Below, in pieces: positions 14,690 through 57,864 of a DNA stretch of 64,000 bases (the stretch's first letter is position 1; each line of letters opens with the position of its first letter). The notes below the pieces were generated by a model. That model was not told the origin of the DNA. It saw only the letters and a program-made list of their open reading frames with translations, and made no database searches. The stretch comes from Dehalococcoidia bacterium (GTDB lineage Bacteria; Chloroflexota; Dehalococcoidia; Bin125), in the NCBI GenBank assembly GCA_963555985.3, contig OY820591.1, positions 704,001 through 768,000 on the forward strand, read 5' to 3'. The position numbers and the translations under genes are program-made.

Positions 14690-15934
14690 ATGTCTGGTCC
14701 GTTGGACGGGATTCGCGTCTTGGAATGTTCGACCTGGGGCTTCGGCCCGATCGGCGGCATGATGCTGGGCGATCTGGGGGCCGATGTGATCAAGATTGAG
14801 TCGCCGACTCGGCCCGATGCGGCGCGCTTTGTGGAGTCTGTCGCCGGCATTCCGAACCGGATGCCCGATGGACGCTCGGCGCTGTTTGAGGCAGTGAACC
14901 GGAACAAGCGCTCGCTCGCGCTCGATCTCAAGCACCCTCGTGGTTGCGAGCTCTTTCGCGATCTGATCCGCGACACCGATGTGTTCATCGAGAACTACCG
15001 CCCCGGCACGTTCGAGAAGCTGGGGCTGACGACCGAGTCGCTCCTGGAGCTCAATCCGCGCCTGATTCATGCCGCAACTGCCGGCTACGGCTTCAAGGGT
15101 GAAGAAGCGCACTTGCCAGCGCTCGATGCGGTGGGTCAGGCACGAGGCGGATTCATGTACGCCGGTGGTTCGCCGGGCGATCCGCCCAACTGGAACACCA
15201 TGGGCATCGCCGACGTGATGGGCGCGACCTGTCTGGCCTACGGCGTATTGGCCGCGATTGCGGGACGTGAACTCAATGGCGGCCGGGGACAGCGGATTGA
15301 GATCTCCCACATCATGGCGACGATGTGGCTGTCGTTCTGGGGCGTGAGCGTGGGGATGTTGCAGGGTCTCGATTCGTGGCCGCGCTTCGACCGCACTCGT
15401 GCAGCGAATCCGCTCTGGAATCTGTACCAGTGCGGCGACGGCGAATGGCTGATGCTGGGCATTCTCGAAGCGGAGCGGGATTGGGCATCGTTCTGCCGTG
15501 CGATGCAGTTGGAGGACCTGACTGAGGACGCTCGCTTCACCACTATCGCGGCGCTCGGCGAACATTGCACTGAGTTGATCGCGATCCTGGACGAGCGCTT
15601 CGCGAGCGCGCCGAGATCGGAGTGGGAGGAGCGGCTGCGCAGCGAGCCGAACCTCATCTTCACGCGAGTCCAGCAGTTGGGTGATCTCCCCACCGACCCG
15701 GCGGTGGTGGCGAACGACTATCTGATTAACTACGACCATCGCCACTACGGCCCGGTGCCGACACTGACGCATCCGGTGCTCTTGCATGGGCAACCGGCCA
15801 GCATTCGGCGGGATGCGCCGGACCTTGGCGAGCATTCGGTCGAGGTGCTGAGCGAGCGACTGGGGCTGTCTCAGGCTGAGACGGACGTACTGATCGCCGA
15901 GGGCGTAATCGACTGCTCGGCGGCGTCAGCTTGA
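14690..15934 (+). CDS. CaiB/BaiF family III CoA-transferase
   Basis: GPLDGIRVLE, LGDLGADVIKIE, NRNKRSLALDLK, ENYRPG, IAD catalytic Asp, APDLGEHS. Confidence 0.93.
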   Translation: MSGPLDGIRVLECSTWGFGPIGGMMLGDLGADVIKIESPTRPDAARFVESVAGIPNRMPDGRSALFEAVNRNKRSLALDLKHPRGCELFRDLIRDTDVFIENYRPGTFEKLGLTTESLLELNPRLIHAATAGYGFKGEEAHLPALDAVGQARGGFMYAGGSPGDPPNWNTMGIADVMGATCLAYGVLAAIAGRELNGGRGQRIEISHIMATMWLSFWGVSVGMLQGLDSWPRFDRTRAANPLWNLYQCGDGEWLMLGILEAERDWASFCRAMQLEDLTEDARFTTIAALGEHCTELIAILDERFASAPRSEWEERLRSEPNLIFTRVQQLGDLPTDPAVVANDYLINYDHRHYGPVPTLTHPVLLHGQPASIRRDAPDLGEHSVEVLSERLGLSQAETDVLIAEGVIDCSAASA

Positions 15935-15945
15935 GGGTTGCGGAA

Positions 15946-18288
15946 TCAGGGGATGGGATAGAGCGTGTCCCCGCTCTGGAGCGTGAAGTCCTTCGAGCCT
16001 GGTGCAGCCTCGCCGTCGTGATCGATCGCATAGCCGGTCCAGGTGTTATCGGTCCTGGTCCAAACTCCGATAATGCCGGCAGCGCGCAGGCGCGGGACAA
16101 GCAGTGAAGCGAAGCCCTTCGCACCCAACCAGACGGCTCGACCGTCGGGCACCCGATCTGAGATTAGAGGACTGCCGCCGTCGCGCCGGGGCGCGTGACT
16201 GCGCAAGATCTCGGCCTCGATCACCTCGCCGTTGTTGGTTGAGGCCACCAGTACTGCCTCGCCGCCTTGATTGACGCCAAACCAGCGGGTGGCGAGTCCC
16301 TGATCGGTGACGATGTTCGGCTCATCGACGCCGACGAGGACATGCGCATTCAGGGATTCGATGCGAACGGGTAGACCATTGGCGACCAGTTGAGACTGGG
16401 CGTCGGCAATGCGGGCGCTGACGGTGATGATCTGACCGATGCGGGAGCCGCTTGCGGGGTTGGTGTTCATGGTGATCTGAGTGGGTGGTCCGCTGACGGT
16501 CAAGGCGCGCTGAGCGCTGAGGTTGCCGCTGCGCGCTTGCAAGATGTAGGTGCCGGGCTCGAGGCTGTTGTCTTCGCCTGCGCGGGTGATGAGGATGAGG
16601 GCGTCGCCTCGCTGTTGGGCTTGGATCTGCGCGGCGCCGATCGTCTCCTGGTTTGGCCCGACGATGCTGAATCGCAAATTGGTCGGCGCGGTGGCAACGC
16701 CTCTGAGATCGTGGGCGGAGAGCTTGATCGTGACCGGGTCTGCACCGCGGATGTAGTGCAGGCTCCCGTCGGGCTGGCCGAGGCTGAGTGCAACGGCAAC
16801 GCCGCTGAAGTCGATCCGCAGAGGCGTGGTACCCAAGTTGTCGCCTCCGTCAAGCACACCGACCAGGGCTCGGACTTCGGCCGAGCCTTCTGAGTCGGCG
16901 GTGAGGACAAGGTCGATTGAGCCGGTTTGCTCCGGGTCGAGGCGGCTGAGGCGCTGGCCGCTGAGATTGCAACTGGATTCGCAGGCGCCGCCCTTGACGA
17001 AGTGGAGCGAACCCCTGGACGTGGTGATGATGATGGCGTTGATCTGTCTGGGGTTGCTGGGGTCGCCGTTGGCGTTGTGGATGCTCAGGCGGATGCGCGT
17101 TTGCCCGCCTTGAGCGGGGATGATCGAGGGTTGGTTCTCGATCAGTTCCAAGGTGACGGTGGCCACTTCTCGCTGCTCGGAGACGTGCAGTGTGCGCGAG
17201 CCGGGAGCGGTGTCGAACTCCTCCCAGTGCACGGTTTCGGTGTAGTTGGCTCCTGCTTCGCTGACGCTGTAGCTCAAGCTCAGGCCGAGCAAGCGGGCGT
17301 TGCCGGAGACGCGGTATGCGCCCAGGGGGAGTTCGTAGGGCACGAGGGCGCGGGCTTGATAGCCGCTCAGCTCGCAGCGCCAGCGGTTGGAACGGGCTGA
17401 GGCGCGCCGGCAGGAGCCGGTTGACAGGCCGCCGAGGCCTGACTTTTCGATTTCCAGACCGTCCGATCCCAAAAGCCGGGGCACTTCAACTCGCCCGTAG
17501 GCGTCGAGCCGCAGTTTCAGATTCGAGATGGTCTCTCCGGCGCGGGCGGCGAAGGTGAACTCCAGGCTCAGCCCGATCCGGGCACCGCCGATGCCGTCGG
17601 AGCCGAAGCCGGGGGCGACGTGTCCGTCGGAGTCATCGGGGAAGCTGAGATAGAGGCGCAGGTCGCTGATCCGCTCGGTTTCGCCGACGGTGAGAGTGAC
17701 GGCGGCGGTGAAGCTGAGCCGTTCGAGCTCCTGCGCGAGGATGGGGATGTTGGGCTGGTTGGCTCGATAGAGGCCGAAGCTGTCGAGCGTGGCTCGCACC
17801 GTGATCTGGCCGCTGGCATCGGCCGCGAGTTTCAGGGGCGGTACGGAGAGATGGTCACGTTTGATTTTGATAGTGCAAGACCAGCCGTTGCCTGACTGAC
17901 AAGAGCGCTCGGCGCTGGAGAGGGAGAGCGGGACGCTGCGCCGGGTTTCTCCGCCGAGGTGGTCGTCAAAGGTAGCTCCGTCGCCTTCGATTTCGAGCTG
18001 GAGGGTGGGGACGCGCATGGCTGCGCCGCTGCCGGAGAGACGTTGCTCGACAGTGAGATCGGCATCGAGCTCGAGCTGGATTCCGCTGACGCCGGGTGGG
18101 AAGTGGCCGTCGGACTGGTTGGCGAATGCGAGCGTGATCTCGCCGGAAGTGGAGAGGCTGGTCGGGGTGGGAGCCGTTTGCGCACTGCTTTGCGGCCAGA
18201 GCGGTGAGACGCCCGCTCCAAGTGCGGCGACGAGGGCGCAGAGCACTGCCATGAGGCCGATGGCGGCAGTGCGGAAGGGATGCGACAT
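15946..18288 (-). CDS. Secreted Ig-like repeat surface protein with C-terminal Trp-rich domain
   Basis: Signal peptide, IHNANGDPS..INAIII segment shared with 1530..4370, VSARIADAQSQLVANG, and C-terminal VW.....WTGY...PGSKDFTLQSGDTLY. Confidence 0.78.
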   Translation of the reverse strand: MSHPFRTAAIGLMAVLCALVAALGAGVSPLWPQSSAQTAPTPTSLSTSGEITLAFANQSDGHFPPGVSGIQLELDADLTVEQRLSGSGAAMRVPTLQLEIEGDGATFDDHLGGETRRSVPLSLSSAERSCQSGNGWSCTIKIKRDHLSVPPLKLAADASGQITVRATLDSFGLYRANQPNIPILAQELERLSFTAAVTLTVGETERISDLRLYLSFPDDSDGHVAPGFGSDGIGGARIGLSLEFTFAARAGETISNLKLRLDAYGRVEVPRLLGSDGLEIEKSGLGGLSTGSCRRASARSNRWRCELSGYQARALVPYELPLGAYRVSGNARLLGLSLSYSVSEAGANYTETVHWEEFDTAPGSRTLHVSEQREVATVTLELIENQPSIIPAQGGQTRIRLSIHNANGDPSNPRQINAIIITTSRGSLHFVKGGACESSCNLSGQRLSRLDPEQTGSIDLVLTADSEGSAEVRALVGVLDGGDNLGTTPLRIDFSGVAVALSLGQPDGSLHYIRGADPVTIKLSAHDLRGVATAPTNLRFSIVGPNQETIGAAQIQAQQRGDALILITRAGEDNSLEPGTYILQARSGNLSAQRALTVSGPPTQITMNTNPASGSRIGQIITVSARIADAQSQLVANGLPVRIESLNAHVLVGVDEPNIVTDQGLATRWFGVNQGGEAVLVASTNNGEVIEAEILRSHAPRRDGGSPLISDRVPDGRAVWLGAKGFASLLVPRLRAAGIIGVWTRTDNTWTGYAIDHDGEAAPGSKDFTLQSGDTLYPIP

Positions 18289-18523
18289 ACGGCGTCTCGG
18301 TCGGTTCGAGCCCGGGAGTGCTGCGTGTCATAACGCATGGTGCGGCTTGCTCTCACTGTGGCGGAAACACCGCCGCCGCGCTACTCGCTGCGAGTGCGGG
18401 AGTGGCGCGGCGGTGGATTGATGTGTTGGTTTGCTCTGTGAAAGGTCTGTTGGATCTCCTCTGTCGATGCAAGCTCTCTCGCCCAAGGCTTGAGCCAGCA
18501 GCCGGCCTCAGTGCTGCTCGCAT

Positions 18524-18554
18524 CGAGATACCCGCGACAAGCGCGGGTATGACG
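18524..18554 (-). repeat. REP-like palindrome, family A (cgtcatacccgcg-N-cgcgggtatc)
   Basis: cgagatacccgcgacaagcgcgggtatgacg. Other copies at 20906, 21074, 53711, 55205 and 57731. Confidence 0.8.
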
Positions 18555-18575
18555 AAGTGGGAAACGCGAACGTCT

Positions 18576-19802
18576 CTAGCGGCCGATGACGAGGGAGACG
18601 GAGGTGGTACCGCTGCCGCCGATGTTGAGAGTGGCGGCGCGACTTGCGTCTTGGACCTGGTAGTCGCCGGCATTGTTCGTGACCTGCTTCCAGGCGTCGA
18701 GCGCCTGGCGGACGCCGGTCGCGCCGACCGGGTGGCCGCCGCCGATCAGACCGCCGGAGGGGTTCATCGGGATGTCGCCGTCGAAGTCGATGCGGCCGTC
18801 CTCGATGGCCTCGAAGCTGCGGCCCGGCTCGGTCAGGCCGAAGTGGTCGATGGCCATGTAGTGCGAGGTGGTGAAGCAGTCGTGGGTCTCGATCACGTCG
18901 AGTTGTTCGGGGCCGTCAATGCCGGCGCGATCGTACGCATCGGTGATGGCGCGGCGGGTGTGCGGGAGCACGTAGGAGTCGCCGGCGGCCTGAGCGATCT
19001 TCTCGTCGAAGGTGAGAGCGGCGGTGCGGTGTCCCCAACCCTGGATTGTGGGTACATCGGCGAGGTCGATGCCGCGACGCTCGGCCCACTCTGCTGCGCG
19101 CTCCTCGTTGGCGAGCACGAGCGCGGCCGCGCCGTCGGTGATCTGCGAGCAGTCGCGGAGCAGCAGACGCCCCGTGATCGGCATCGTGTACTTGCCCTCG
19201 TTGAGGTCGGCGCGGGCGTCTCCGAGCCAACTGCGGGTCTGGGCGGCGGGGTTGCGCTGGGCGTTCTCGTAGTTGAGTTCGGCTAGTCGCTGGAGGTGGG
19301 CGGGGTCGAGTCCGTAGCGGTCGTCGTAGACGTCGCCGAGGCGGCCGAAGAGCTTGGGGAAGGGGAGTTCGACGCCCTGGGCTTCCAGCTCGTACCAGCC
19401 GGCGGTACCGAGGAAGTCGCCGCCCTCGACCGGAGAGACGGTCTTCATCTGTTCGACGCCGAGGATGAGGGCGGTGCCGTAGCGCTCGGCTTCGAGTTCG
19501 GCCGAGGCCATGAGGATGGAGATCGAGCCGGAGGCGCAGGCGGCCTCGTGGCGGGAGGTGGGCAGACCGCCGAAGTCGGGGTTGATTTCGGCGAAGAAGC
19601 CGCCGAGTTGTCCCTGTTTGGCGTAGAGCTCGCCGGCGAAGTTGCCGACATGGGCGGTGTCGATGTCGCCTGGTTCCATTTCGCAGACATCGAGCGCGCC
19701 GTGCACGGCCTCGGCCATGACATCGCGCAGGTTGTGTTCTTCCTTGCGCCAGTTGCGGGCGAAGTCGGTCTGGTATCCGCCGAGGATGTAGGTCTTAGAC
19801 AT
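18576..19802 (-). CDS. Thiolase (acetyl-CoA acyltransferase, SCP2/HDCF type)
   Basis: EAACASG, ETHDCFT, NPSGGL..GHPVGATG motifs. RBS aggag. Confidence 0.92.
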   Translation of the reverse strand: MSKTYILGGYQTDFARNWRKEEHNLRDVMAEAVHGALDVCEMEPGDIDTAHVGNFAGELYAKQGQLGGFFAEINPDFGGLPTSRHEAACASGSISILMASAELEAERYGTALILGVEQMKTVSPVEGGDFLGTAGWYELEAQGVELPFPKLFGRLGDVYDDRYGLDPAHLQRLAELNYENAQRNPAAQTRSWLGDARADLNEGKYTMPITGRLLLRDCSQITDGAAALVLANEERAAEWAERRGIDLADVPTIQGWGHRTAALTFDEKIAQAAGDSYVLPHTRRAITDAYDRAGIDGPEQLDVIETHDCFTTSHYMAIDHFGLTEPGRSFEAIEDGRIDFDGDIPMNPSGGLIGGGHPVGATGVRQALDAWKQVTNNAGDYQVQDASRAATLNIGGSGTTSVSLVIGR

Positions 19803-19838
19803 GGTGACTCCTAGGTCGTTGCGGTTGTTGGCAGAGTA

Positions 19839-20189
19839 TCAGGGCAGCGCCTCGAGTTTGTTGATGAAGCGACGCACATCGCCGAGGCCGCGCGAAACTA
19901 CGTCGGGGTTGTCCCAGTCTTCGTAGAAGTTGACGTGGAGCAGATTTGCACTGCGGAACAGGAGGCGAATTTCGTCGTCGCTCGTTTCGTCGACCAGCCG
20001 CGTGACGGCCCGATACAGAGCTGCGTGTGTTCGATGCGGCCAGTCTCGTTGTTCGCAGACGGCTTTGACCGCCTGCGCGGCCGCTCCCCAGCCCTTCTCC
20101 GAAGCCTGGCGCGTATCGCCCTCGGCGAGTTCGGACTCAGCCTGGGCGAGTAGGTGGAGGCTGGCCTCTTGGTAGGTCTGGGTAGTCAT
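19839..20189 (-). CDS. PaREP1-family (HEPN-like) protein
   Basis: QASEKGWGAAAQAVKA and LHVNFYEDW. RBS aggag. Close paralog of 12525..12875. Confidence 0.82.
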   Translation of the reverse strand: MTTQTYQEASLHLLAQAESELAEGDTRQASEKGWGAAAQAVKAVCEQRDWPHRTHAALYRAVTRLVDETSDDEIRLLFRSANLLHVNFYEDWDNPDVVSRGLGDVRRFINKLEALP

Positions 20190-20351
20190 GGGTGATGCTC
20201 CTGGGCCTCAGTGTAGGCGGGTGGGCTTGTCGCACAGGCGGGGTGCATTGTCCGAATTGCGGGCACGGTAGGGACTGGGCGGTCGCGATTCGCGGCCTCG
20301 CGGGGCTGTGAGAAAAAAACGAGGTGGGGTTTGCCGCTTGCGGTCGGGGGA

Positions 20352-20708
20352 TTACGGCGGCTCTTCCTCTTCCTCGAGGCTGTCGTCGTCGTCCGGCAGG
20401 GGCACGTCTTCGCCGCGCATCAGGGCCACGGCGATGGCGTGGGGATGGAGGTGGAGTTCCTTCTTCTGCTCGGGCGTAAGGGGTGCTTCGGGCAGGCGGG
20501 GGGAGTGGTTGGCTCGGGGTTTGGGCGCGGGTTCGGGATGGGGTTCGAGGTCGAGGGCGTGGTGGATCTCGCGGCTCTTGGAGTTGGAGGGGGAGAGTTC
20601 GCGGATGAGGAGGGCGAGCGCTTTGATGCGGACGTGGCCGGCTTCGTCGGAGTGGGCGAGTTGGCCGACGCCGGTCATGCTGGACTGGTAGGTGTAATCG
20701 AAGGGCAT
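20352..20708 (-). CDS. Hypothetical 118 aa protein, possible terminase small-subunit-derived; paralog of 55471..55842
   Basis: MPF.Y.YQS.M.GVG.LA...RELSP.N.KSREIHHAL...PHPEPAP...MRGEDVPL shared between the two copies. RBS aaaggaa. Confidence 0.7.
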   Translation of the reverse strand: MPFDYTYQSSMTGVGQLAHSDEAGHVRIKALALLIRELSPSNSKSREIHHALDLEPHPEPAPKPRANHSPRLPEAPLTPEQKKELHLHPHAIAVALMRGEDVPLPDDDDSLEEEEEPP

Positions 20709-20826
20709 GGCGGGGTGTTCCTTTCTTGGGAACCTACGTTTTGGATAGGTGAGTTTATATGTTCTGATGTTCGGGTTGCAAACTGGTTGGGTGTGTTGTG
20801 GTTGTCGTTGGGGTGGTTTGGGGAGT

Positions 20827-21128
20827 CCCCCCCTCTGCCTACGGCATCTCCCCCCGCAAGGGGGGAGAGGGGATAAGGGAGGGGGAAGGTTGGTAGTGCT
20901 CACATCGAGATACCCGCGACGGAGCGCGGGTATGACGGAGTTTTTGGCAGGTATAGCGGTGTTGCGGGCGTTTGTGCTGGGTGTGGTGCTTCACCCCCTC
21001 TGTCACTTCGTGACATCTCCCCCCAAGGGGGAGATTTTGGGGAGGTGGGGTGAGGGTTGGGTACTGGTCACGGCGAGATACCCGCGACGGGGCGCGGGTA
21101 TGACGGAGCTCTGGGCGCGGGTATGACG
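20827..21128 (-). repeat. BIME-like array of alternating REP family B and family A palindromes
   Basis: B at 20827-20868 and 20994-21033 (cccctctgtcacttcgtgacatctccccccaagggggag), A at 20906-20937 and 21074-21105, half-A at 21113-21128. Confidence 0.85.
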
Positions 21129-21218
21129 GTCTTGATTTACGCAAAGGTCTCCGGTGGGGAGAGATCGATTGAGCGTTACGCTCCGGTGTTGGTCTGGCGT
21201 GGGTGGATGGGGATGGGT

Positions 21219-22034
21219 CTAGTAGCCGCGGAACTGAGGCGCCCGCTTCTCGCGCCAGCTGAGGCGGCCTTCGTTTGCGTCTTCGGTCTGGCGGTAGCGG
21301 TCGGAGACTTCGACTTCTCTGGCCAGCGTGTCGCGGAGGGAGTGCTCGGAGGCGTAGTCGATCATCTCTTTGAAGGCGGAGGCGTTGAGGGTTGGGAGGC
21401 CGGCGAGGTTGGAGATGTACTTGTCCGCTTCGGCGTCGAAGTCTTCGAGCGGCCAGACGCGGTTGGCCCAACCGGATTGGAGCGCTTCTTCGGCGAACAT
21501 GTGGCGGCCGGTGATGAGCAGTTCGAGCGCGCGGCCGCGGCCCATGATGCGGGGCGCGAACCAGGTGGTGCCGCCGTTCATGCCGATCGCGCGCTGGACG
21601 CGGTGGTCGCCGACCTCGATGTTGTCGGCGCAGAGGCGGATATCGCAGGCGCAGGCGAGCTCCCAGCCGTGTCCTAGGGCCCAGCCGTTGACCAGCGCGA
21701 TCACCGGCTTCTTGAGCGCGCGGAGCGAGAGCAGGAAGGGATGGTGGACGGTGATCGAGGAGTCAATGCCGCTGGGTTCCATTCCGTAGAGGTCGTCGCC
21801 TGAGCAGAAGGCCAGTTGACCGGCTCCGCGCAGAGTGACGACGCGGACGTCGGGGCGGGCGGCGGCGAAGTCGATTAGCGCTTGGAGTTCGTGCAGCAGG
21901 CGGAAGGAGAGCGCATTGAGGCGTTCGGGACGATTGAGCGTGATCGCGAGCACGCCTTCGGCGGTGATGTCCCAGATGGTGACGGCCCATTCACCGTCGG
22001 CGAGTGGGGTAGGCGCGTCGGGGATGCTGGACAT
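21219..22034 (-). CDS. Enoyl-CoA hydratase/isomerase family protein
   Basis: ITLNRPERLNAL, AFCSGDDL, KPVIALVNGWALGHGWELACACDIR, EDANEGRLSWREKRAPQFRG. Confidence 0.92.
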   Translation of the reverse strand: MSSIPDAPTPLADGEWAVTIWDITAEGVLAITLNRPERLNALSFRLLHELQALIDFAAARPDVRVVTLRGAGQLAFCSGDDLYGMEPSGIDSSITVHHPFLLSLRALKKPVIALVNGWALGHGWELACACDIRLCADNIEVGDHRVQRAIGMNGGTTWFAPRIMGRGRALELLITGRHMFAEEALQSGWANRVWPLEDFDAEADKYISNLAGLPTLNASAFKEMIDYASEHSLRDTLAREVEVSDRYRQTEDANEGRLSWREKRAPQFRGY

Positions 22035-22214
22035 AATTGTTCCTCTCGGCGTTGCTATCTGGTGACGGACAGTATCGCGGAAACAGCGGGTGAACTGGAT
22101 GTTACCGCGCTCGTACTCTCAAGACGGAGCGGTGCAATACGCAATGGCTCGGGGTTCACCGGTACCGACGGAGCTAGACCGCCGAGAAGTTGCCGCCGCC
22201 AGAGAGAGCATTCC

Positions 22215-24638: not shown

Positions 24639-24668
24639 TTTTCGGGCGGGGCGTAGAGTGCGGGCGTG

Positions 24669-49260: not shown

Positions 49261-49266
49261 TCGCCG

Positions 49267-49776: not shown

Positions 49777-49780
49777 CAAG

Positions 49781-50278
49781 CTACTCCGGCCAGTCGGCCG
49801 GACGCCGGCCGGGCAACCATGAGTAGAGCTGAATCAGCACACCGCCGGTGTCGCGCGGATGAATGAAGAACTGGCTCCACTCGAAATCGCTGAATGGCTC
49901 CGAGATCGGCTCGATCTCCAGTTCTTCGCGCACGTACCGATACGCCTGCTCCGCGTCTTCGACCTCGATCGTGATGTGGTGCATTCCGGGCCCGCGCGTA
50001 TCCAGGAAGCGCTTCATAAACGAGGATTCATCCCAGGGGCCGATGATCTCAAGTCCCATCTGCCGCTTCGGGAAATGAAACTGAGCGACCCGAAATCCCT
50101 CGTCCTGGCTCAACGTCCAGTGGTCGAGCTCCAGTCCAAACAGCTTCTGCCAAAACGTCGCCGCCCGCCCCGGATCCTCCGCAGCAATGGCGACGTGATC
50201 AAACCGCACCCAGCCGATCCCACCCTTGCCGCGCCGGCTGGGAGTCCCCTCGTGACCGCTGGGTGATGCACTCGCCAT
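49781..50278 (-). CDS. VOC/glyoxalase family protein, methylmalonyl-CoA epimerase-like
   Basis: FDHVAIA, LEI..P, FLDTRGPGMHHITIEV, FIHPRDTGGVLIQL. RBS ggaggt before the ATG at 50278. Confidence 0.85.
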   Translation of the reverse strand: MASASPSGHEGTPSRRGKGGIGWVRFDHVAIAAEDPGRAATFWQKLFGLELDHWTLSQDEGFRVAQFHFPKRQMGLEIIGPWDESSFMKRFLDTRGPGMHHITIEVEDAEQAYRYVREELEIEPISEPFSDFEWSQFFIHPRDTGGVLIQLYSWLPGRRPADWPE

Positions 50279-50355
50279 ACCAACCTCCCAAGCGAATGGT
50301 AGCTGTCGCTCGGCGGCGAGCGTAATCGCGGGACGAGGCAGCGTATCCTGCACTC

Positions 50356-51345
50356 ATGTCACAGCCACTTGAGATTCGTCCTGGCTCGGTCGTATTCGTG
50401 ATCAATCCCCGCGCCGGGGGAGGTGGGCAGGTGCGTACGATCGCGGAAGCGTGTCGGTGGGCGTCGCGGCGCGCGGGTCTCGATGGCGTGATCGCGCCTA
50501 CGCAGTCGCCTGAGCACGCGGCGCAAGTGGCGGCGGCCGCTCACTCAGCCGGCGCCGCTGCGATCTTCGGCTGCGGCGGAGACGGCACGCTCGCAGCCAT
50601 CCTCCAGGGACTGCCCGCAGGATCGCCGACAGCGCTCGGAGCGATGCCGCTGGGGACGGCGAACGTCTGGGTCGACGAGACCAGAATCCCGCGTCAGCCC
50701 GTCCGCGCGCTTGAGGCCCAGTTAGACGTCCTCAACGGTATGCGCGGCGCAACGCTGTGGGCTGATACCGGGCGCATTCATACGCCCGATCACAGTCGCC
50801 GCTTCCTGCTCATGGCGGGCTTTGGTCTCGACGCCGCAGCCGTCGCCGGAATCGTTGCCAGCAGGCGCCGCCAGCGCCTGAAACGGCTCATCGGCGAGCC
50901 GATCTACTTCTTCTCGGCTGTGAGCGAAGCGATCGGCCAATCCGGTTGGCGCGTGCGCATGAGTATTGACGGCGGCCCGCCCCAAGACGCCGAAATCGGG
51001 ATGCTTACGGTCGGCAACACCCGTCAGATCGGTACTTGGCTCGAAATCAATCCCCGCGCCGTCGCAACGGATGGAATGCTCGACGTGATCCTCGTGGACG
51101 CCCCGCCCTGGCGGGCGCTCGCACTTGCCCCCCTCGCGCGAAACGGCCTGATGGTCGAGAGCCCCGGCGTGCGCCACCTGCGCCTCCGCAAGCTGGAGTT
51201 GTGGCCGCTCGGCACGCCCCCGCCTTGCCAGGTCGACGGCGATCCGGGTCCAACTGGCGTTCATACCATCGAGATCGAACCCTACTCGTTGAGAATCCTC
51301 TCCCCCAATCCCGATGCCCCAGTCCTCGCAGGCGACTTGGCATAA
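50356..51345 (+). CDS. Diacylglycerol/lipid kinase family (YegS/BmrU-like)
   Basis: INPRAG, GGDGTL, PLGTANV, F.LMAG.G.DA, DGMLDV, QVDGD. Confidence 0.9.
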   Translation: MSQPLEIRPGSVVFVINPRAGGGGQVRTIAEACRWASRRAGLDGVIAPTQSPEHAAQVAAAAHSAGAAAIFGCGGDGTLAAILQGLPAGSPTALGAMPLGTANVWVDETRIPRQPVRALEAQLDVLNGMRGATLWADTGRIHTPDHSRRFLLMAGFGLDAAAVAGIVASRRRQRLKRLIGEPIYFFSAVSEAIGQSGWRVRMSIDGGPPQDAEIGMLTVGNTRQIGTWLEINPRAVATDGMLDVILVDAPPWRALALAPLARNGLMVESPGVRHLRLRKLELWPLGTPPPCQVDGDPGPTGVHTIEIEPYSLRILSPNPDAPVLAGDLA

Positions 51346-51474
51346 CCGCGTCGGTCTCAAAGCTCCTCTGCACAGTCCCGATTCCCCCACGAACACCGAT
51401 GCGTAACCAGAGCTCGCTCCTCTTCCCCTTACATCTTCGGGACATCTGACCGCTGTGTCGCGGCGGGACGAGGA

Positions 51475-52245
51475 TCAGCCTTCCCGCAGCCGCCGCAGTT
51501 CCTCCTCCAATTCCCGCACCCGCGCTTCCGCCGCCAACCGCCCCTCCTCTGCCGCCAACCGCCCCTCCTCGGCTACCAACCGCCCCTCCTCGGCTACCAA
51601 CCGCCCCTCCCGCTCAGCCAAGCGGCCTTCCCGCTCCGCGTCGAAGGTAGGGATGTGCTCACCCGTCGCCGGGTCGTACCAACCGAGCGCGCCCTGCTTC
51701 CAGCGCAGCCAGAGACCCAAGGCCTCGCTCTCGCCTTGCAAGACGCCCGCTGACAACTCCACGATCGGGATCGGCTCGTAGCGCTCGCCGACCAGGCGGT
51801 CGCCGGCCAAACGCGCGCCGTGCCACTCGCCGCTGTGGTCGAAGCGCCAGTACTCGCGCACGCCCAGGGCGGCGTAGTCGCGCCGCTTGTCGACCGTGTC
51901 GATCTTCGCCGTGCTGGGCGAAGCGACCTCGAGGATGAAGTCGGGCGGCTTGCCCTGGTCGGCGATCACGTAGCCGTTCTGCGCGTAGTACAGCTCGGGA
52001 TCGACATCGAAGGCGATCAGCAGGTCGGGCACCCGCCGCCGCGAGCCGCGAGCGGCGACGAGGTAGCGCTCCGCGCTGACGAGCGTCGTCTCGGGCTGGG
52101 CGAAATGCTGCGCCAGGAAATGCGGGTTGCCGGTCAGATGGACGTAGTCGTAAGAAGTCACTTCGTCGGGATTCCGCTCCGGCGGTTCCGGCAGGCGGAA
52201 GCGGACCAAGGTTTGGGCGGTGGATGAGGCATCGGCAGTGGACAT
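51475..52245 (-). CDS. Uma2 (DUF820) PD-(D/E)xK nuclease-family protein with a heptad-repeat tail
   Basis: PDLLIAFDV, GKPPDFILEVASPST..D...K...YA.LGV.EYWRFD, and EGRLAAE repeats. Confidence 0.9.
   Translation of the reverse strand: MSTADASSTAQTLVRFRLPEPPERNPDEVTSYDYVHLTGNPHFLAQHFAQPETTLVSAERYLVAARGSRRRVPDLLIAFDVDPELYYAQNGYVIADQGKPPDFILEVASPSTAKIDTVDKRRDYAALGVREYWRFDHSGEWHGARLAGDRLVGERYEPIPIVELSAGVLQGESEALGLWLRWKQGALGWYDPATGEHIPTFDAEREGRLAEREGRLVAEEGRLVAEEGRLAAEEGRLAAEARVRELEEELRRLREG
51531..51635 (-). repeat. Five 21-bp coding tandem repeats (EGRL[AV]AE)
   Basis: ccaaccgcccctcctc units at 21-bp period. Confidence 0.85.
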
Positions 52246-52307
52246 GTCGCTCCGGTCAATGGCTACAGCCTAGCGACCACGCAACTGAGCAGAGATACAG
52301 GGCGCGC

Positions 52308-53660
52308 TCATGGTATGTCCGCATCAAAGTCCATCCCAATCTGACCCCGCTCCCGGAACTCCGCGATCTCCGACTCCGAATAGCCCAGCACCTCCCCATA
52401 CACGTACTCGTTGTCTTCACCCATCGCCACCGGAGCCTTCCGCATCTCCGTCGGCGTCGACTCAAACCGGAAGAACGGGGCATTGAACCGAAACGGGCCG
52501 ATCCCGTCATGCAGCGTCATCGACTGGTTCAGCCCCCGTGCCTGCACGTGCGGATCATCCAGCACTCGCGACGCCTCCAGCACCGGCGCCGCCGGTACGT
52601 CGTGCCCCTGGAGCAGATGCATCAGCGCATAGTCGTCTTGCCCCACCGTCCACTCCGCGATCCGCGCATCCAGCTCAGCCTCCCGCGAGCGCCGCCCAGC
52701 CTCAGTCTCCAGTTCCGCATCCTGCGCCCACTCCGGCTCCCCCATTGCCGCCCGCAGACCGCGCCACTGCGCGTTATCCAGCACCGAGATCGCAATCCAG
52801 CGATCGCCTCCATTCGTGCTGTCGCCACCAGTCTCCGAGCGTGCGGGATAGACTCCATGCGGCGCGTAACCTTCGATCGAGCGATTCCCCATCCGCTCCT
52901 GCACCACTCCGTTGAGCGAGTAGTCCATGAACGCCTGCGCCAGCATCCCTCCGGCGCATTCCGCCTGCGCCAACTCGATCCACTGCCCCTCGCCTGTCCG
53001 TCGGCGATGCCGCAGCGCCGCCATCACCGCAAACGCCGCGTGCGCTCCCGCCACATAATCGCCCGAAAAGATCGACGTGATGTACGACGGATCCAGATCC
53101 GGATAGCCGCGCAGCAAGGTATGCCCCATCACCGACTCCAGGTGCACCCCCAGCGCTCGCGCCTCCCGGTAGGGCCCGTCTGACCCGTAGGCCGGCATCC
53201 GCACTGCGATCAGGTCTGACCGCGACGCCCTCAGAAACTCCGGCCCGATCCCCAGCTTCTCCAGCGTCCCCGCCGCATTGTTCTCCACCAGCGCATCCGA
53301 ACGCGAGACCAGCCGCGCAAAGATCTCCCGCCCCTCCTCAGTCAGCAGGTCCACCGTCATCGAGTGCTTGTTCCGATACTGCTGCACGAAGGTGGGGCAA
53401 TAGTTCCAGGGCCGCGGACCCGGCTCCGAGTTCGGGTAGCCCGTCGCCCAACCCGCCCCTGCCTGGATCGCCGCAGCCGACGGCCGCGCCTGCCCGCCCC
53501 GAGTCATCGGCTGCCAGACGTGAATGTTCTCAACCTTAATCACCTCAGCGCCCAAGTCCGCCAGCAACGTCGTCGCAAACGTCCCCGCCCAGACCACGCA
53601 AAGGTCGATCACCCGAAACCCGTCAAGCGGCGCTGTCATGGCAGGATGTTCGTCGTTCAT
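52308..53660 (-). CDS. CaiB/BaiF family III CoA-transferase
   Basis: PLDGFRVIDL..VWAG, LADLGAEVIKVE, RNKHS, catalytic D in GDYVAG, GNRS..YAPHGVYP. Start may be 53639. Confidence 0.92.
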   Translation of the reverse strand: MNDEHPAMTAPLDGFRVIDLCVVWAGTFATTLLADLGAEVIKVENIHVWQPMTRGGQARPSAAAIQAGAGWATGYPNSEPGPRPWNYCPTFVQQYRNKHSMTVDLLTEEGREIFARLVSRSDALVENNAAGTLEKLGIGPEFLRASRSDLIAVRMPAYGSDGPYREARALGVHLESVMGHTLLRGYPDLDPSYITSIFSGDYVAGAHAAFAVMAALRHRRRTGEGQWIELAQAECAGGMLAQAFMDYSLNGVVQERMGNRSIEGYAPHGVYPARSETGGDSTNGGDRWIAISVLDNAQWRGLRAAMGEPEWAQDAELETEAGRRSREAELDARIAEWTVGQDDYALMHLLQGHDVPAAPVLEASRVLDDPHVQARGLNQSMTLHDGIGPFRFNAPFFRFESTPTEMRKAPVAMGEDNEYVYGEVLGYSESEIAEFRERGQIGMDFDADIP

Positions 53661-53710
53661 CTGCTCAATCCCCTCTGCCCAATGAAGACTTGCTCGCCAG
53701 TCCAGAATTC

Positions 53711-53767
53711 CGTCATACCCGCGCTTGCCGCCGAGCCTGTCCCCGCGAAGGCGGGGATCACTCGCCG
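53711..53767 (+). repeat. REP family A with a nested gagcctgtccccgcgaaggcgggg hairpin
   Basis: cgtcatacccgcgcttgccgccgagcctgtccccgcgaaggcggggatcactcgccg, nearly identical to 55205-55262. Confidence 0.8.
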
Positions 53768-53852
53768 AGTCGAACGCGGACTTCGAGACCGAAGCCCGGC
53801 AACTCTTCGATCAATCTCGATCGCCGCCGTCTCAGTCTGAGGCCGCCAGCGG

Positions 53853-55067
53853 CTAGCACACCACACCTCGCTGCTTCAGCTCCCCAATCTCCGACTCCCC
53901 AAACCCGCACTCCGACAACACTGCCTCCGTATCCTCCCCCAGCTTCGGCGCCGCGCGCCGCAGACGCCACGGCGACGCCGGCATCACAAACGGACGCCCC
54001 GGAATCTGCACCGACCCCAACTCCTCATGCTCCGACGTCGACCAGAATCCCCGATCGCTGAAATGGCCGTCCTCAAACAGCTCGTCCACGCTGAACAGCG
54101 GTCCGCAGAGCACCTTCGCTTCCCGCGCCTCTGCCCAGATCTCCCGTTTCGTCCGCTCCAATGCCCAGGGCAGGAAGTTCGCGTGGAACTCGTCCACCAA
54201 CTCCGCTTGCAAGCCCACCATCGGTCGCCACCACTTCACATCTTGCAACCACTCAGGCCGCCCCAGCATCTCGTTCAAACGCGGAATCCGAATCCCCGCC
54301 CCCGAAAACTCCACGTACCCGTCCGCGCAGGGATAGACCCCCGCCAGAATCCCCGCGCTCGGCCCAGGCGCGCGCAGCGACCTACGCCCCGCGAACTCCC
54401 AGCCCATCGTCGCCGCGTGCCGCCGATCTACCCCGTTGAACTGGGCATCGGCGAGGGCGAAGTCGACTCGCTGGCCTACGCCCTGCAACTCGGCGGCGAT
54501 CAGCGCCCCGATCGCGGCTGCGGCTGCGGTCGAACCGCACTCCACCAGCGCCGCCGTGCCGTACATCTTCACCGGCTCGCGATCCTGCACCCCAATTGAG
54601 TACATCTCCCCCGCAAAGCCGTAGAGCACGAGGTCGGAGACCTTGAAGTCTCGGTAGGGCGACTCCTGTCCGAAGGGGGCAATCGAGACCAGGGGCAAGT
54701 CGTCGCGCCGCGATTGGATGCGCTCCCAACCGAGCCCCAGCGAGTCCAATCGCCCAGGCGGCAACGCCTCAATCACAATCGAAGCCCGCTCCAGCAGACG
54801 ATCAAAGACCACAGCCGCGCCCTCATGCTCCAGGTCGAGCGCCAGCGAGCGCTTGTTCGTGTTGAAGTAGAAGAACGTCCCCGATCGCTCCAAACCCTCC
54901 ACACCCCCATACCAGGGCCCCACCCGCCGCAGCGAGTCCCCATCCGGCGGCTCAACCTTGATCACCTCAGCCCCAAAGTCAGCAAACAGCTTCGTGCAAT
55001 AAGCCCCAGCAACCCCCTCAGTGAGGTCAAGCACAACAGCCCCGTCAAGCGGTCCAAGCTCGGTCAT
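53853..55067 (-). CDS. CaiB/BaiF family III CoA-transferase (partner subunit)
   Basis: GPLDGAVVLDL, FADFGAEVIKVEPPDGD, NTNKRSLALDL, APKLGEDT. The usual catalytic Asp is not evident (ALVECG). Confidence 0.9.
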   Translation of the reverse strand: MTELGPLDGAVVLDLTEGVAGAYCTKLFADFGAEVIKVEPPDGDSLRRVGPWYGGVEGLERSGTFFYFNTNKRSLALDLEHEGAAVVFDRLLERASIVIEALPPGRLDSLGLGWERIQSRRDDLPLVSIAPFGQESPYRDFKVSDLVLYGFAGEMYSIGVQDREPVKMYGTAALVECGSTAAAAAIGALIAAELQGVGQRVDFALADAQFNGVDRRHAATMGWEFAGRRSLRAPGPSAGILAGVYPCADGYVEFSGAGIRIPRLNEMLGRPEWLQDVKWWRPMVGLQAELVDEFHANFLPWALERTKREIWAEAREAKVLCGPLFSVDELFEDGHFSDRGFWSTSEHEELGSVQIPGRPFVMPASPWRLRRAAPKLGEDTEAVLSECGFGESEIGELKQRGVVC

Positions 55068-55470
55068 GGTCAGCCAGTCTAAGGCGAAGCGCGCCTTCCT
55101 CTCCTCCACACCACAAAGAGAGCCACCCCTCCTCTCCAAACCTCCTCCCCCCTCTCCCCAGATCCCCCTTCCCACCTCCGGTCATACCCGCCCCAAACAA
55201 GTTCCGTCATACCCGCGCCCCGTCGCGGAGCCTGTCCCCGCGCAGGCGGGGATCACTCGCCGTGACCAGCACCCAACCCCCAAACCCCTTCCTCCCTCTC
55301 CCCCTTGAGGGGGAGATGTCACGAAGTGACAGAGGGGGTGAAAACGCCACAACCCTCAAGAACCCACATGCGCCTTCCGACAACCACGACACACTCCCAA
55401 ACTACCCACCCGAACACCCATCCATATAAGATCAAGTGTCCTTCATTGAGCGAGAGAGGAACCCGGACCC

Positions 55471-55842
55471 ATGCCCTTCAACTACAGCTACCAGTCCGCC
55501 ATGGCCGGCGTCGGCGAGCTCGCCTTCTCCAAGCGCGAACCCGGCTACGTCCGCGCCCAAGCCTTCGCCATCCTGCGCCGCGAACTCTCCCCGGCCAACC
55601 CCAAGAGCCGCGAGATCCACCACGCGCTCGGCATCGCACCCCACCCCGAACCCGCGCCCCGGCCCAACCATTCCCCCCACCTGCCCGAAGCGCCGCTCAG
55701 TCCTGAGCAGCGGAAGGACTTCCACCTCAACCCGGACGAGTTCTTCGAGGCCTACGAAAAGATCGACGCCATCATGCGCGGCGAAGACGTCCCCCTGAGC
55801 GAGGAGGAAGAAAGCACGGAAGAAGAGGATGAACCACAGTAA
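55471..55842 (+). CDS. Hypothetical 123 aa protein, possible terminase small-subunit-derived; paralog of 20352..20708
   Basis: High similarity to copy 1, RBS gagaggaa, and overlap with the start of a terminase-like ORF. Confidence 0.7.
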   Translation: MPFNYSYQSAMAGVGELAFSKREPGYVRAQAFAILRRELSPANPKSREIHHALGIAPHPEPAPRPNHSPHLPEAPLSPEQRKDFHLNPDEFFEAYEKIDAIMRGEDVPLSEEEESTEEEDEPQ

Positions 55843-56092
55843 TACCCACGCCCCGGAGCGGCTGAACTTAGCGTTCAGCTCCTCCCACGACGCCCGCCGT
55901 TTTTTTCCCACGGACAGACAGCGCGATCTCTATAGCGCAGTCGCTGCCGTGCCCAATCCCGGCCTCGCCTTGGTCGGGTACGGCGGCGCCATGGGCGGCG
56001 GCAAGACCCGCGCCCTGGCCGAACTCGCCCAAGCCCGTGCTCACCTCCCTCACAGTCCCCCTCCCCCCTCTGCGGGGGGAGATGTCACGTAG
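55829..56092 (+). pseudogene. Truncated phage terminase large subunit N-terminus
   Basis: PTDRQ adenine-binding-like motif followed by hydrophobic strand and YGGAMGGGKT Walker A. Runs into a REP about 10 codons later. Confidence 0.6.
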
Positions 56093-56175
56093 AGTCTGCC
56101 CCCGCGAAGGCGGGGGGACAGAGGGGAGCGCAACCGGCACAAACGCTCCAACCAGCACAGCCACCCCACAACACT

Positions 56176-57006
56176 TCAAACCCCCAACCCCCGAGCAACC
56201 AACACCCCCAACCCCGCAACCCCGCAATACAACGCAAACGGAACCAAACTCCGACCCCGAACCAACCACAACAACCCCCGAATCGCAATCAGACCGGTGA
56301 GAAACGAGATCACCGCCGCCAGCGCCAACGTCGGCTCATCCACGCCCGCCGACTCCGTCGCCACCGCCCGCACCGCCAACACTCCCGCTCCCGCCAGCGC
56401 CGGAATCGACAACCAGAACGCCCATCGAGTCGACGCCGAACGCCCAAACCCCAGCGACATCCCTGCCGCCATGCACACCCCACTCCGAGAAATCCCAGGC
56501 AAAATCGCCAAACACTGCGCCACTCCGATCGCAAGCGCGTCCAAACCCCTCATCGAGCCCAACTCGCGCGGTCGCCGCAACCGGCGCAGCAACACCTCCG
56601 ATCCCCCGATCAGCGCCGCCGTCGCCAGCAGCAACGCCCCCGCCGTCGTCGGCCCGCGCAACTCGTCCTCAAGCGCCTCATACAGCAGCGCGCCCACGAC
56701 CACGATCGGCATCGTCCCAATCAGCCCCAGCCAAATCAGCCGTCGCGGCCGCAGCCCGTCAACTCGCTCGCCCTCTGGCGAACGCAGCCCGCGCAGCACC
56801 CCCGCGACCTCCCGCCGAAACGCGAACAGAATCGCCGCCAGCGTGCCCAGATGCACCGCGACATCGAAATCCAGCCCCGGATCGTCCCAGCCGAACAGCC
56901 AGCGCGCCAGCGAGAGATGGCCGCTGGACGAGATCGGCAGAAACTCCGTCAACCCCTGCACCACGGCCAGCACGATCACTTCAAGCAGGTTCGATTCAGC
57001 CGACAC
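56176..57006 (-). CDS. uppP: Undecaprenyl-diphosphate phosphatase
   Basis: VQGLTEFLPISSSGHL, DVAVHLGT, IG.AQ.LAILPGISRSG, F.LSIPA. Confidence 0.95.
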   Translation of the reverse strand: MSAESNLLEVIVLAVVQGLTEFLPISSSGHLSLARWLFGWDDPGLDFDVAVHLGTLAAILFAFRREVAGVLRGLRSPEGERVDGLRPRRLIWLGLIGTMPIVVVGALLYEALEDELRGPTTAGALLLATAALIGGSEVLLRRLRRPRELGSMRGLDALAIGVAQCLAILPGISRSGVCMAAGMSLGFGRSASTRWAFWLSIPALAGAGVLAVRAVATESAGVDEPTLALAAVISFLTGLIAIRGLLWLVRGRSLVPFALYCGVAGLGVLVARGLGV

Positions 57007-57057
57007 CTAGACTCCACCTAGCCCGCCAACGCCACTCTACGACCAGGAGCCGCCCCA

Positions 57058-57723
57058 ATGGACATCACCGAAGTCATTCGCACCACCTTCGCCTGCCGCG
57101 ACTTCACCGACGATCCCGTCTCCGATGAGACGATTGCCAAAATCCTCGAACACGCCCGCTTCGCCCCCTCCGGCGGCAACCGCCAGGGCTGGCACGTGAT
57201 CGTCGTCCGCGATCCCGAAATCCGCGCCCAGATCGCCGACTGCGCCCAGCGCCCCGCCCGCCGCTACGTCGCCATGCAGCAAGCCGGCGAGGGCCCCTGG
57301 AACGCCGCCTTCCCCTCCTCCGTCACCGACGAGTCCGCCGCCGACGTCCGCGTCCCCAGCCGCCTTTACACCACCTACACCGACGCCCCCGTCCTCCTCG
57401 CCGTCGTCGTCGACCTCGGCGTTGTCGCCTCCGTCGACAAGGAACTCGATCGCGTCGGCGTCATCTCCGGCGCCTCCATCTACCCCTTTGTCTGGAGCAT
57501 CCTCCTCATGGCCCGCAACGAAGGCCTCGGCGGCGTCCTCACCACCATCCCGATCGCCGAAGAGCCACGCCTCAAAGAGCTCTTGGGCCTACCCGACCAC
57601 TACGCCGTCGCCGCCTTCCTCCCGATCGGCAAACCCGTCCAGCAACTCACCCGCCTCAAGCGAGGCCCCATCGAACACTTCACCACCATCGACCGCTTTG
57701 ACGGAGAGGCCTTCAATGGCTAA
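57058..57723 (+). CDS. Nitroreductase family protein
   Basis: R.FTDDPV, ARFAPSGGNRQGW, LLMARNEGLGG, PIGKP. RBS aggag. Confidence 0.9.
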   Translation: MDITEVIRTTFACRDFTDDPVSDETIAKILEHARFAPSGGNRQGWHVIVVRDPEIRAQIADCAQRPARRYVAMQQAGEGPWNAAFPSSVTDESAADVRVPSRLYTTYTDAPVLLAVVVDLGVVASVDKELDRVGVISGASIYPFVWSILLMARNEGLGGVLTTIPIAEEPRLKELLGLPDHYAVAAFLPIGKPVQQLTRLKRGPIEHFTTIDRFDGEAFNG

Positions 57724-57730
57724 AAACTTC

Positions 57731-57765
57731 CGTCATTCCCGCGCTCCGCCGCGGGAATCTCGCCG
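57731..57765 (+). repeat. REP family A variant
   Basis: cgtcattcccgcgctccgccgcgggaatctcgccg, with compensatory ttccc/gggaa versus taccc/gggta in other copies. Confidence 0.8.
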
Positions 57766-57864
57766 TGAACAGCACCGTCGTTTCATCCTCAGGACATCCT
57801 GTCCCGAATCGCTCGGCGCAGGCGCAACTACCGCCAACTGCTTCGGCGGCGATGCCTTCAGGAG

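Follow-up and report, generated by a model that had tools for sequence, protein, structure and literature searches.

Local strand-polarity domains and co-oriented REP elements on the chromosome of an uncultured Dehalococcoidia bacterium

The window analyzed here is a stretch of 64,000 nucleotides from an uncultured Dehalococcoidia bacterium (GenBank assembly GCA_963555985.3, contig OY820591.1), corresponding to C1:704001-768000 of the 3.145-Mb contig C1 in a bin of 3.33 Mb with 65% GC. Within the window and along the whole of C1, the + strand alternates between G/T-rich and C/A-rich domains, and repetitive extragenic palindromic (REP) elements, among them the families REP-A and REP-B, lie in an orientation that follows the sign of this skew. 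The polarity is positional and is not borne by genes, nor is it the result of two replichores, of inversions or of transcription, and it is long-lasting at many loci while at others it flips with no change in gene order. The reading that we favor, at a confidence somewhat short of an even chance, is that the skew reflects a strand polarity generated locally, with the REPs as its oriented passengers.

To describe the skew, GC skew at four-fold degenerate sites was calculated per gene and is reported on the + strand unless stated otherwise, and D denotes the local skew field estimated from neighboring genes. After smoothing over 5 kb, and at a hysteresis of 0.2, C1 contains 34 upward and 35 downward crossings, 69 in total, corresponding to a mean domain length of about 45 kb, and the cumulative skew has no V shape; dnaA is located at 64 kb. 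The per-gene skew has a standard deviation (SD) of 0.35 and an amplitude of up to 0.8–0.98, and it is correlated between neighboring genes on the same strand (r = 0.69) and on opposite strands (r = 0.31). Regression of gene skew gave a slope of 0.95 for local D and of −0.12 for gene strand, with an R2 of 0.54, and the distribution of D is broad and unimodal. The nuo operon has values of +0.6 to +0.8 on its coding strand, and adjoining genes of the opposite strand reach +0.95 and +0.98 on the same + strand. About 40% of all crossings are step-like, some of them at gene boundaries, and about a third are ramps wider than 6 kb. Genome-wide, 70 tracts of 40 nt or more consist of at least 90% G+T or C+A; 67 of them match the local skew sign, and 45 have a mapped REP within 300 bp.

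A bias linked to transcription or translation, in which either mutation is asymmetric on the coding strand or codons are selected and REPs take their orientation from the genes that they follow, finds a point of attachment in the real coding-strand component of the skew, as the mean four-fold skew on the coding strand is −0.10 and ribosomal protein genes are C-ending. Neighbors on opposite strands nevertheless share the + strand sign, the coding-strand skew of operon-like runs (n = 98) is positive in 51 and negative in 47, intergenic DNA carries the same skew as genes, and the orientation of REP-A is independent of flanking genes (26 "+" versus 25 "−" in a + + context). We find this explanation hardly credible.

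In the window, total GC skew in 1-kb windows has its maximum of +0.284 at 20001-21000 and its minimum of −0.329 at 56001-57000, and changes sign near 8 kb and 42 kb. At four-fold sites the per-gene skew ranges from +0.70 (thiolase, − strand) down to −0.94 (nitroreductase, + strand), and the sign is common to genes of both strands, as seen for thiolase and the Big_1 gene (+ strand, +0.28) in one domain and for uppP (− strand, −0.75) and the nitroreductase in another. Between 8.4 and 42.3 kb most genes have values of +0.15 to +0.70, the exceptions being 10673-12097 and 32922-35058, both at about 0, and 31680-32402 at −0.15. From 42.4 kb on, most genes fall between −0.01 and −0.94, with a short call at 48592-49134 at +0.30, and between 52.3 and 57.7 kb values of −0.52 to −0.94 are found on both gene strands, before the skew climbs back over about 12 kb around 62 kb. 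The sign change at 42347..42400 is step-like, with D of +0.23 on the left and −0.29 on the right and a best-fit ramp of 1.2 kb. The original prediction, drawn by eye from the letters of the window, was that positional strand-skew domains reach into synonymous codons, and this was borne out at four-fold sites, on both gene strands and genome-wide. The two stretches that it quoted, 20781-20820 with only G and T and 56130-56280 with only C and A, read as it described, as do the ATG at 55067 of the CoA-transferase and the T/G-ending codons of that gene. Its statement that the 5' end of uppP has ordinary codons does not agree with the third positions, which are G/T-ending along the entire gene (first 35 codons, G 20, T 4, C 9, A 2; last 32 codons, G 20, T 10, C 1, A 1). 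The G/T-only C terminus of uppP encodes a conserved hydrophobic segment, with VPFALYCG among the conserved patterns, and the four-fold coding-strand skew of the gene is +0.75 compared with −0.21 to +0.48 in 13 relatives. The closest public uppP loci all come from Dehalococcoidia metagenome-assembled genomes, with 59–68% identity.

The orientation of the REPs follows the skew closely. Genome-wide, 174 REP-A and 152 REP-B loci were mapped, and their orientation was compared with the sign of the flanking skew after exclusion of the REP itself and of 150–300 bp; agreement was found for 164/174 REP-A loci (r = 0.87) and 116/152 REP-B loci. The strict 29-nt REP-A core agrees at 91 of 96 sites, and the motif-defined subfamilies A, B1, and B2 agree at 107/115 (93%), 120/144 (83%), and 130/152 (86%). 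For all motif-defined REPs the count is 359/411, or 141 of 160 when counted as clusters. A fourth repeat, X, lies in one sense relative to the polarity in 28 of 41 cases (68%). The observed agreement of 0.886 compares with a circular-shift null of 0.503 ± 0.043, with a maximum of 0.652 in 2000 shifts, and only 22 of 171 REP clusters are of mixed orientation. An artefact of composition is excluded, because the REP-A core, with 15 C and 3 G, sits on the locally G-rich strand. The proposal that REP orientation tracks the skew therefore holds, with the orientations in the window as previously listed, and the further expectation that the skew is not flat around REPs also proved correct; when oriented by the REP, four-fold skew is 0.40–0.43 within 500 bp and approaches 0 beyond −20/+30 kb.

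Comparison with relatives separates the skew from gene order. Orthologues in two genomes of the same family but of other genera, G007 and G014, have a median identity of 70% and lie in long collinear stretches. Positions 1.69–1.89 Mb of our genome are collinear and same-stranded with 0.21–0.40 Mb of G014, and within this stretch 28 consecutive orthologues (1804–1875 kb, ~70 kb) have positive skew in 27 cases here and negative skew in 27 cases in G014, whereas the 8 orthologues just before the flipped block are negative in both genomes. Across 85 collinear orthologues with G007 the + strand skew is correlated with r = 0.53. Between genera, four-fold sites in conserved residues are identical at a fraction of only 0.50–0.51 compared with 0.40 expected from composition, indicating that these sites have largely turned over, and because the patterns are partly conserved between such genera, local maintenance of the skew is needed. 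The window itself is collinear (reversed) with G014 from 5 to 51 kb. Gene order is unbroken at both 8 and 42.4 kb, and G014 also shows the second of these sign changes, in a weaker form. The pair of genes for thiolase and enoyl-CoA hydratase (ECH), which surrounds the REP cassettes, is locally inverted relative to G014 and has skews of +0.70/+0.59 here and −0.12/−0.34 there, each with the sign of its domain. The collinear flips and the adoption of the local sign by the inverted pair indicate that the skew is made and kept in place and can flip without rearrangement.

The SD of 2-kb skew is 0.11 here and 0.10 and 0.14 in the same-family relatives, being strongest in G007 (0.139), and among genomes of other families it is 0.033–0.034 in two and 0.092 in one. 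Over the 120 kb of G023:C1:1-120000, from a genome of another family of the class, skew declines steadily from +0.20 to −0.03, and the phenomenon may not be limited to one family.

These comparisons bear directly on the possibility that an ordinary replichore skew was scrambled by inversions, with REPs oriented by replication and carried along, an explanation that the original prediction had offered as its alternative in the form of an inversion of roughly 8–42 kb. Such a history would account for REP orientation and skew flipping together and for the weak co-orientation of genes, 53% of which lie on the G-rich strand (58% where |D| > 0.3), and a strongly mirrored GC skew is described for T. 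roseum, another member of the Chloroflexota (PMC2615216). It is contradicted by the 69 crossings without a V in the cumulative skew and by the unbroken collinearity of the window from 5 to 51 kb, and it fits poorly with a unimodal rather than two-peaked D, with the ramps that make up about a third of the crossings, with the flip of the same-stranded 28-orthologue block, and with the collinearity of 172.6 kb of strain haplotigs. We consider it very improbable. No 8-mers with replichore-scale polarity were found (best 3.2, median 1.25), and tRNA genes are co-oriented with the G-rich strand in 20 of 36 cases. The single rRNA operon (+ strand, C1:986336-994500) lies exactly on a + to − crossing, with D of +0.29 on the left and −0.50 on the right.

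An artefact of assembly or consensus in a long-read metagenome bin is an explanation to which we give next to no credence. The bin is 96% complete and carries a contamination figure of 7.5%, which is explained by the ten small contigs being strain haplotigs. All ten (C2–C11) correspond to regions of C1 with 95–99% identity, are collinear with it, and together comprise 172.6 kb with 3687 differences. Against an artefact, contigs from four public runs, representing the same strain, match the window with 0 differences in pieces of up to 3.3 kb, and short-read contigs from the public runs cover 6754-8985, including the sign change at 8 kb, without a difference. Furthermore, the skew resides in third positions of Pfam-confirmed genes (Pfam backs the genes named in the original prediction and about a dozen more), and gene order is shared with separately assembled genomes of other genera over about 200 kb.

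According to the reading that we favor, one strand of each ~45-kb domain would gain G and T at freely varying sites regardless of gene direction, and one strand per domain may be more often exposed, single-stranded or non-repaired during some form of DNA synthesis. REPs and a small gene linked to them (described below) would insert or survive in one orientation, and more often so where exposure is strong, so that REPs would report the polarity rather than create it, although they may reinforce it. The simplest candidate for the source would be the prevailing direction in which DNA is synthesized across the domain. The role of REPs as passengers is suggested because REP positions are lineage-specific, the sign is kept where the REP is missing, and several repeat families share the polarity. 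Syntenic spans that bear a REP in one genome also have a REP in the relative in only 2/7 and 3/9 cases, and where a REP is present only here the relative keeps the sign of D in 9 of 11 spans. G007 has a single copy of the REP-A core and yet the strongest patchy skew, and |skew| in both G007 and G014 barely depends on distance to known REP motifs. The agreement between REPs and skew is also weaker in these relatives, with 28/37 for B1 and 45/72 for B2 in G007 and 19/35 for REP-A in G014.

Several observations weigh against this reading. |D| decreases monotonically with distance to the nearest REP mark, being 0.305 at less than 1 kb and 0.116 at more than 25 kb. REPs are present in 55 of the 60 strong segments, and 403 of the 427 marks in strong segments are oriented in agreement with D. 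A kernel that takes only the positions and orientations of REPs as input gives a correlation with D of r = 0.68, and mean |D| in 10-kb windows rises from 0.195 without REP-A to 0.394 with three or more. A link between REP density and |D| is not predicted by a simple model of fork direction, whereas a process driven by REPs would predict it. In the block that is flipped in G014, REP-A is also reversed, with 7 of 8 matches at 320–400 kb on the "−" strand. Upward and downward crossings are about equally sharp, 14/34 and 16/35 being step-like, and no clusters of DnaA boxes (E. coli consensus) or AT-rich spikes were found, although this search is uninformative. To these are added caveats on the data, namely that the gene calls are our own, from a three-class codon-usage mixture (2853 genes, 86% coding), that 400 kb of each of G007 and G014 was covered, and that the REP families of these relatives are incompletely mapped and may include further ones.

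The link between REP density and |D| is what would be expected if REPs themselves produced the skew as halos, in an extension of what the original prediction proposed. A nuclease such as a DUF559 protein would nick at oriented REPs, repair or displacement synthesis would expose or re-copy one strand for kilobases, and new REPs would favor that strand, in a self-reinforcing process in which flips are possible. In addition to the dependence of |D| on REP distance and number, this possibility gains from the rarity of mixed clusters, from the larger |D| of the REP-holding genome at syntenic spans, from the reversal of REP-A in the flipped block, and from the nuclease genes between REP arrays and the strain indels described below. 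However, the skew shows no step or cusp at REPs, where its profile is two-sided, and known nick-directed repair tracts are far shorter than the 10–20 kb on both sides seen here. Five of the 60 strong segments have no REP mark, the sign persists in the REP-free syntenic spans, G007 has strong patchy skew with one REP-A copy and without a stand-alone DUF559 gene (the domain gave only weak, partial matches, located within very long frames), and overall agreement in G014 is limited to 20 of 35 cores, although 7 of 8 agree in its strongest domain. The decay around REP-A, from 0.39 to 0.09 over 20 kb, is comparable with that from 0.37 to 0.11 around any gene with |skew| > 0.4, and thus equals the autocorrelation of the field itself. 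All of the cross-sectional evidence is equally expected if REPs follow a pre-existing exposure; markers that insert in proportion to such exposure give the same picture. Of the earlier halo proposal, the fall of |skew| with distance stands, while causation is neither refuted nor shown. We regard REP-driven halos as a serious contender, albeit a rather unlikely one.

A further possibility is a mosaic of imports, in which homologous recombination or transfer brought in replacement segments from lineages with the opposite polarity in the same region, and the patches were then inherited. Sign changes on a collinear backbone and the step-like crossings, some located at gene boundaries, would agree with this. 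Recombination between sequences with opposite third positions is strongly hindered, however, the patches cover housekeeping operons such as nuo, and none of the three family genomes shows a clean two-domain pattern that could have served as the source. Partial conservation of the pattern despite the turnover of four-fold sites, and the inverted gene pair having taken the local sign, are likewise difficult to reconcile with imported patches. In a SAR202 isolate genome, anomalous GC-skew regions are reported to overlap predicted islands (bioRxiv 10.1101/2023.03.25.534242), which counts in favor of imports. On balance this explanation appears improbable.

Differences between strains give an indication of the substitutions involved. 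Of the 3687 single-nucleotide differences between haplotigs and C1, which are unpolarised, 1473 are at four-fold sites. On the + strand at D > 0.25 there are 44 C/T versus 106 A/G and 37 G/T versus 15 A/C differences, and at D < −0.25 there are 130 C/T versus 72 A/G and 15 G/T versus 53 A/C. The resulting C/T:A/G ratios of 0.42 and 1.81, respectively, compare with 1.11 and 0.72 expected from C>T only (near T/A, at equilibrium) and with 0.51 and 3.04 expected from raised A>G. The strain spectrum does not fit pure C>T and is nearer to raised A>G, although erosion of the skew would look the same. The misfit with pure C>T counts against the earlier proposal that REPs cause the skew.

The REPs are predicted to be served by an enzyme other than the transposase of known REP systems. 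The inner stem of REP-A has compensatory variants across genomes (GTCAC/GTGAC, GTCCC/GGGAC, GTCGC/GCGAC, and GTCTC/GAGAC), and the core is present in 5 of 18 other family genomes searched. In the window, the second cassette folds as a single strand into nested hairpins of −31 kcal/mol (z −3.1, with 0 of 200 shuffles as stable). The cassettes are mostly direct A-B units, and the ~145-nt units beside DUF559 hold an inverted half-REP, as judged by eye. No match to the Y1 transposase family (PF01797) was found in the 96% complete genome, with control matches in 6 of 14 genomes, and relaxase PF03432 had no match in the genome; PF04986 also had no match here, but none in any control genome either, and is thus uninformative. 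The suggestion of a RAYT flanked by REPs and that of HUH-type nicking are therefore not supported by these three families, with the stated reservation for PF04986. DUF559 nucleases flanked by REPs, which had been named as another candidate, were looked for and are present. Each of the two DUF559 genes in the genome has ~145-nt REP-A units on either side, and 10 of 11 DUF559 loci examined, from 10 genomes, are flanked on both sides by hairpin arrays (CCCTCTCC...GGAGAGGG), L143 being the one that is not flanked; the type of REP differs by lineage. The protein resembles PDB 3HRL, an "endonuclease-like protein" (E = 2.8e-30). This arrangement suggests, from sequence, that a DUF559 protein of the PD-(D/E)XK type, and not a RAYT, probably propagates the REP-A family. 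In the literature searched, no paper links DUF559 to repetitive extragenic palindromic elements, and among the matches listed for papers mentioning DUF559 none concerns REPs by title or abstract. Only 5 indels of at least 25 nt separate the strain haplotigs from C1, and because 3 of these 5 involve REP-B, the comparison suggests that REPs are mobile now.

A small gene of no known family accompanies the REPs. The 118-aa gene in the window and its 123-aa paralogue belong to a family of 118–123 aa with an acidic tail, present at 27 loci on C1 with 60–89% similarity, and about 22 of the 27 copies are on the locally C-rich strand (judged by eye against 20-kb windows). The family has no Pfam or NCBIfam match, and the only occurrence found outside this genome is on a single contig.

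Taken further, the favored reading could be extended to a chromosome without replichores, with numerous initiation zones, or synthesis primed by recombination or nicking, determining the direction of DNA synthesis locally in each of some 70 domains. Such domains would be inherited and would occasionally flip, and they would leave a record both in the extreme synonymous skew and in the way that every mobile repeat family is oriented. Among these families would be a new class of REP that relies on a DUF559 nuclease in place of a RAYT. As a whole, we hold this proposal to be quite unlikely. The crossings show a mild sawtooth, with median widths of 7.5 kb (up) and 10 kb (down) and amplitudes of 0.26 versus 0.19.

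The coordinates of the features are collected in Table 1.

Table 1. Skew domains, REP elements, and associated genes (window positions unless prefixed with C1)
Feature	Position	Strand	Remarks
+ strand C/A-rich domain	1..8380	.	+ strand genes at 0-7 kb, four-fold skew −0.18 to −0.50; 7079-8383 (−), −0.17
REP-A fragment	5252..5270	-	blastn-short match
REP-A-like hairpin	7034..7062	-	by eye; missed by every mapping
+ strand G/T-rich domain, peak 15.9-22 kb	8383..42346	.	four-fold and total skew
REP-B	18515..18554	+	mapped locus
Thiolase and ECH pair around REP cassettes	18576..22034	-	+ strand skew +0.70/+0.59
118-aa gene, no known family	20355..20708	-	directly downstream of REP cassettes 1 and 2
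G/T-only tract (≥90% G+T) just 5' of REP cassette	20781..20828	+	
REP cassette 1	20826..20948	+	REP-A 20826-20890, then REP-B 20892-20948
REP cassette 2	20990..21130	+	REP-A 20990-21045, REP-B 21060-21116, third B tail 21119
REP-A between convergent genes	27136..27190	+	contains the 29-nt core used as pattern
Step-like sign change between AIRS-like gene and AAA ATPase	42347..42400 (C1 746318)	.	genes adjacent and co-oriented
+ strand C/A-rich domain, peak 52.3-57.7 kb	42401..64000	.	four-fold and total skew
REP-B1 tail motif	53710..53720	-	motif
Opposite-sense REP cassette	55203..55342	-	REP-B 55203-55228, REP-A 55297-55342
G+T/C+A tract	55380-55420		one of the 70 genome-wide tracts
123-aa paralogue of the 118-aa gene	55471..55842	+	adjoins REP cassette, mirror arrangement
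REP-A pair by 3' end of uppP	56060..56130	-	motif at 56075
C/A-only tracts overlapping last ~35 uppP codons	56148..56282	+	
uppP (BacA)	56176..57006	-	Pfam E = 1.1e-67; coding strand G/T-ending throughout
Nitroreductase	57058..57723	+	four-fold sites 122 C versus 4 G; Pfam
REP-B2	57729..57776	-	mapped locus and motif
DUF559 locus	C1:1607657-1608370		between REP hairpin arrays; DUF559 protein at C1:1607874-1608191
DUF559 locus (L140)	C1:2138989-2139354		between REP hairpin arrays
DUF559 loci of relatives	L139, L141, L142, L144, L146-L150		between REP-type hairpin arrays

Some further features of the window were observed. A cyclic di-AMP riboswitch (Rfam, 41 bits) is located at 10416-10561 on the + strand, upstream of the gene at 10673-12097, and the 946-aa gene at 1530-4370 contains a long Ala/Glu-rich tandem repeat at 3414-4167 (+ strand). 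The genes at 14690-15934, 52308-53660, and 53853-55175 are paralogues with stretches of 70–84% DNA similarity; the latter two are family III CoA-transferases by Pfam, and their G014 orthologues are placed elsewhere relative to the backbone.

Strand skew is a standard read-out of replication and is used to locate origins, to recognize inversions, and to check assemblies, and these uncultured Dehalococcoidia break all three uses. Their skew ranks with the strongest observed at synonymous positions, but its dozens of domains follow neither replichores nor rearrangements nor transcription. If the polarity were the direction of synthesis, a replication program of many domains would be indicated for the first time in a bacterium, and if REPs were to make the polarity, they would be the first small mobile element that imposes a strand-specific mutation field over tens of kilobases and reshapes housekeeping codon usage. 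Either way the system is testable, with mapped domains, natural flips on a fixed gene order, and DUF559 as a candidate enzyme, and the DUF559-REP arrangement, as read from the gene neighborhoods, hints at what a widespread domain of unknown function may do.

The closest comparison is the GC or keto skew of bacterial replication, which likewise places G+T on one strand independent of gene direction and most strongly at four-fold sites, with a weak excess of genes on the G-rich strand also found here. It differs in that there are about 69 domains of ~45 kb here and not two replichores, in the amplitude of 0.8–0.98, in a sign that differs between genera without rearrangement, in tRNA and rRNA genes that show no clear alignment with it, and in the absence of replichore-scale oligomer polarity. 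In the mammalian skew "N-domains" and in archaeal chromosomes with multiple origins, skew represents fork polarity. Both resemble the present case in having many alternating domains with gradual transitions, which turn over between lineages while gene order is conserved, whereas here only a mild sawtooth is seen, the shares of step-like crossings are equal, and no origin signature was found; in the literature searched, no many-domain skew of such a kind is described for bacteria. The strand asymmetry of vertebrate mitochondria reflects the time spent single-stranded, and it has a comparable four-fold amplitude and a gradient with position, but the domains here are many, lie on a 3.1-Mb chromosome, and have no known strand-displacement replication to account for them.

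The REPs resemble the REP/BIME/REPIN elements and RAYT (TnpA-REP) of the REPtron in being short GC-rich hairpins, mostly intergenic, that form two-type cassettes, in their compensatory stem variants and patchy occurrence among relatives, and in a nuclease gene flanked on both sides by REPs. In contrast to the REPtron, there is no Y1 transposase here, the flanked gene is DUF559, the arrangement is mostly direct, and about 90% of the elements are aligned with the skew. Two reports describe single-strand transposition into the lagging-strand template and the action of TnpA(REP) on single-stranded DNA (PMC3333891, PMC6006769), and tandem REP arrays of P. fluorescens are reported to be oriented by replichore (PMC3116915). 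In IS200/IS605 and these tandem arrays the bias follows two replichores, whereas the REPs here are biased by about 69 local domains, and searches for HUH enzymes were negative. The systems are alike in that elements using single-stranded DNA have a fixed orientation with respect to the strand that the fork exposes.

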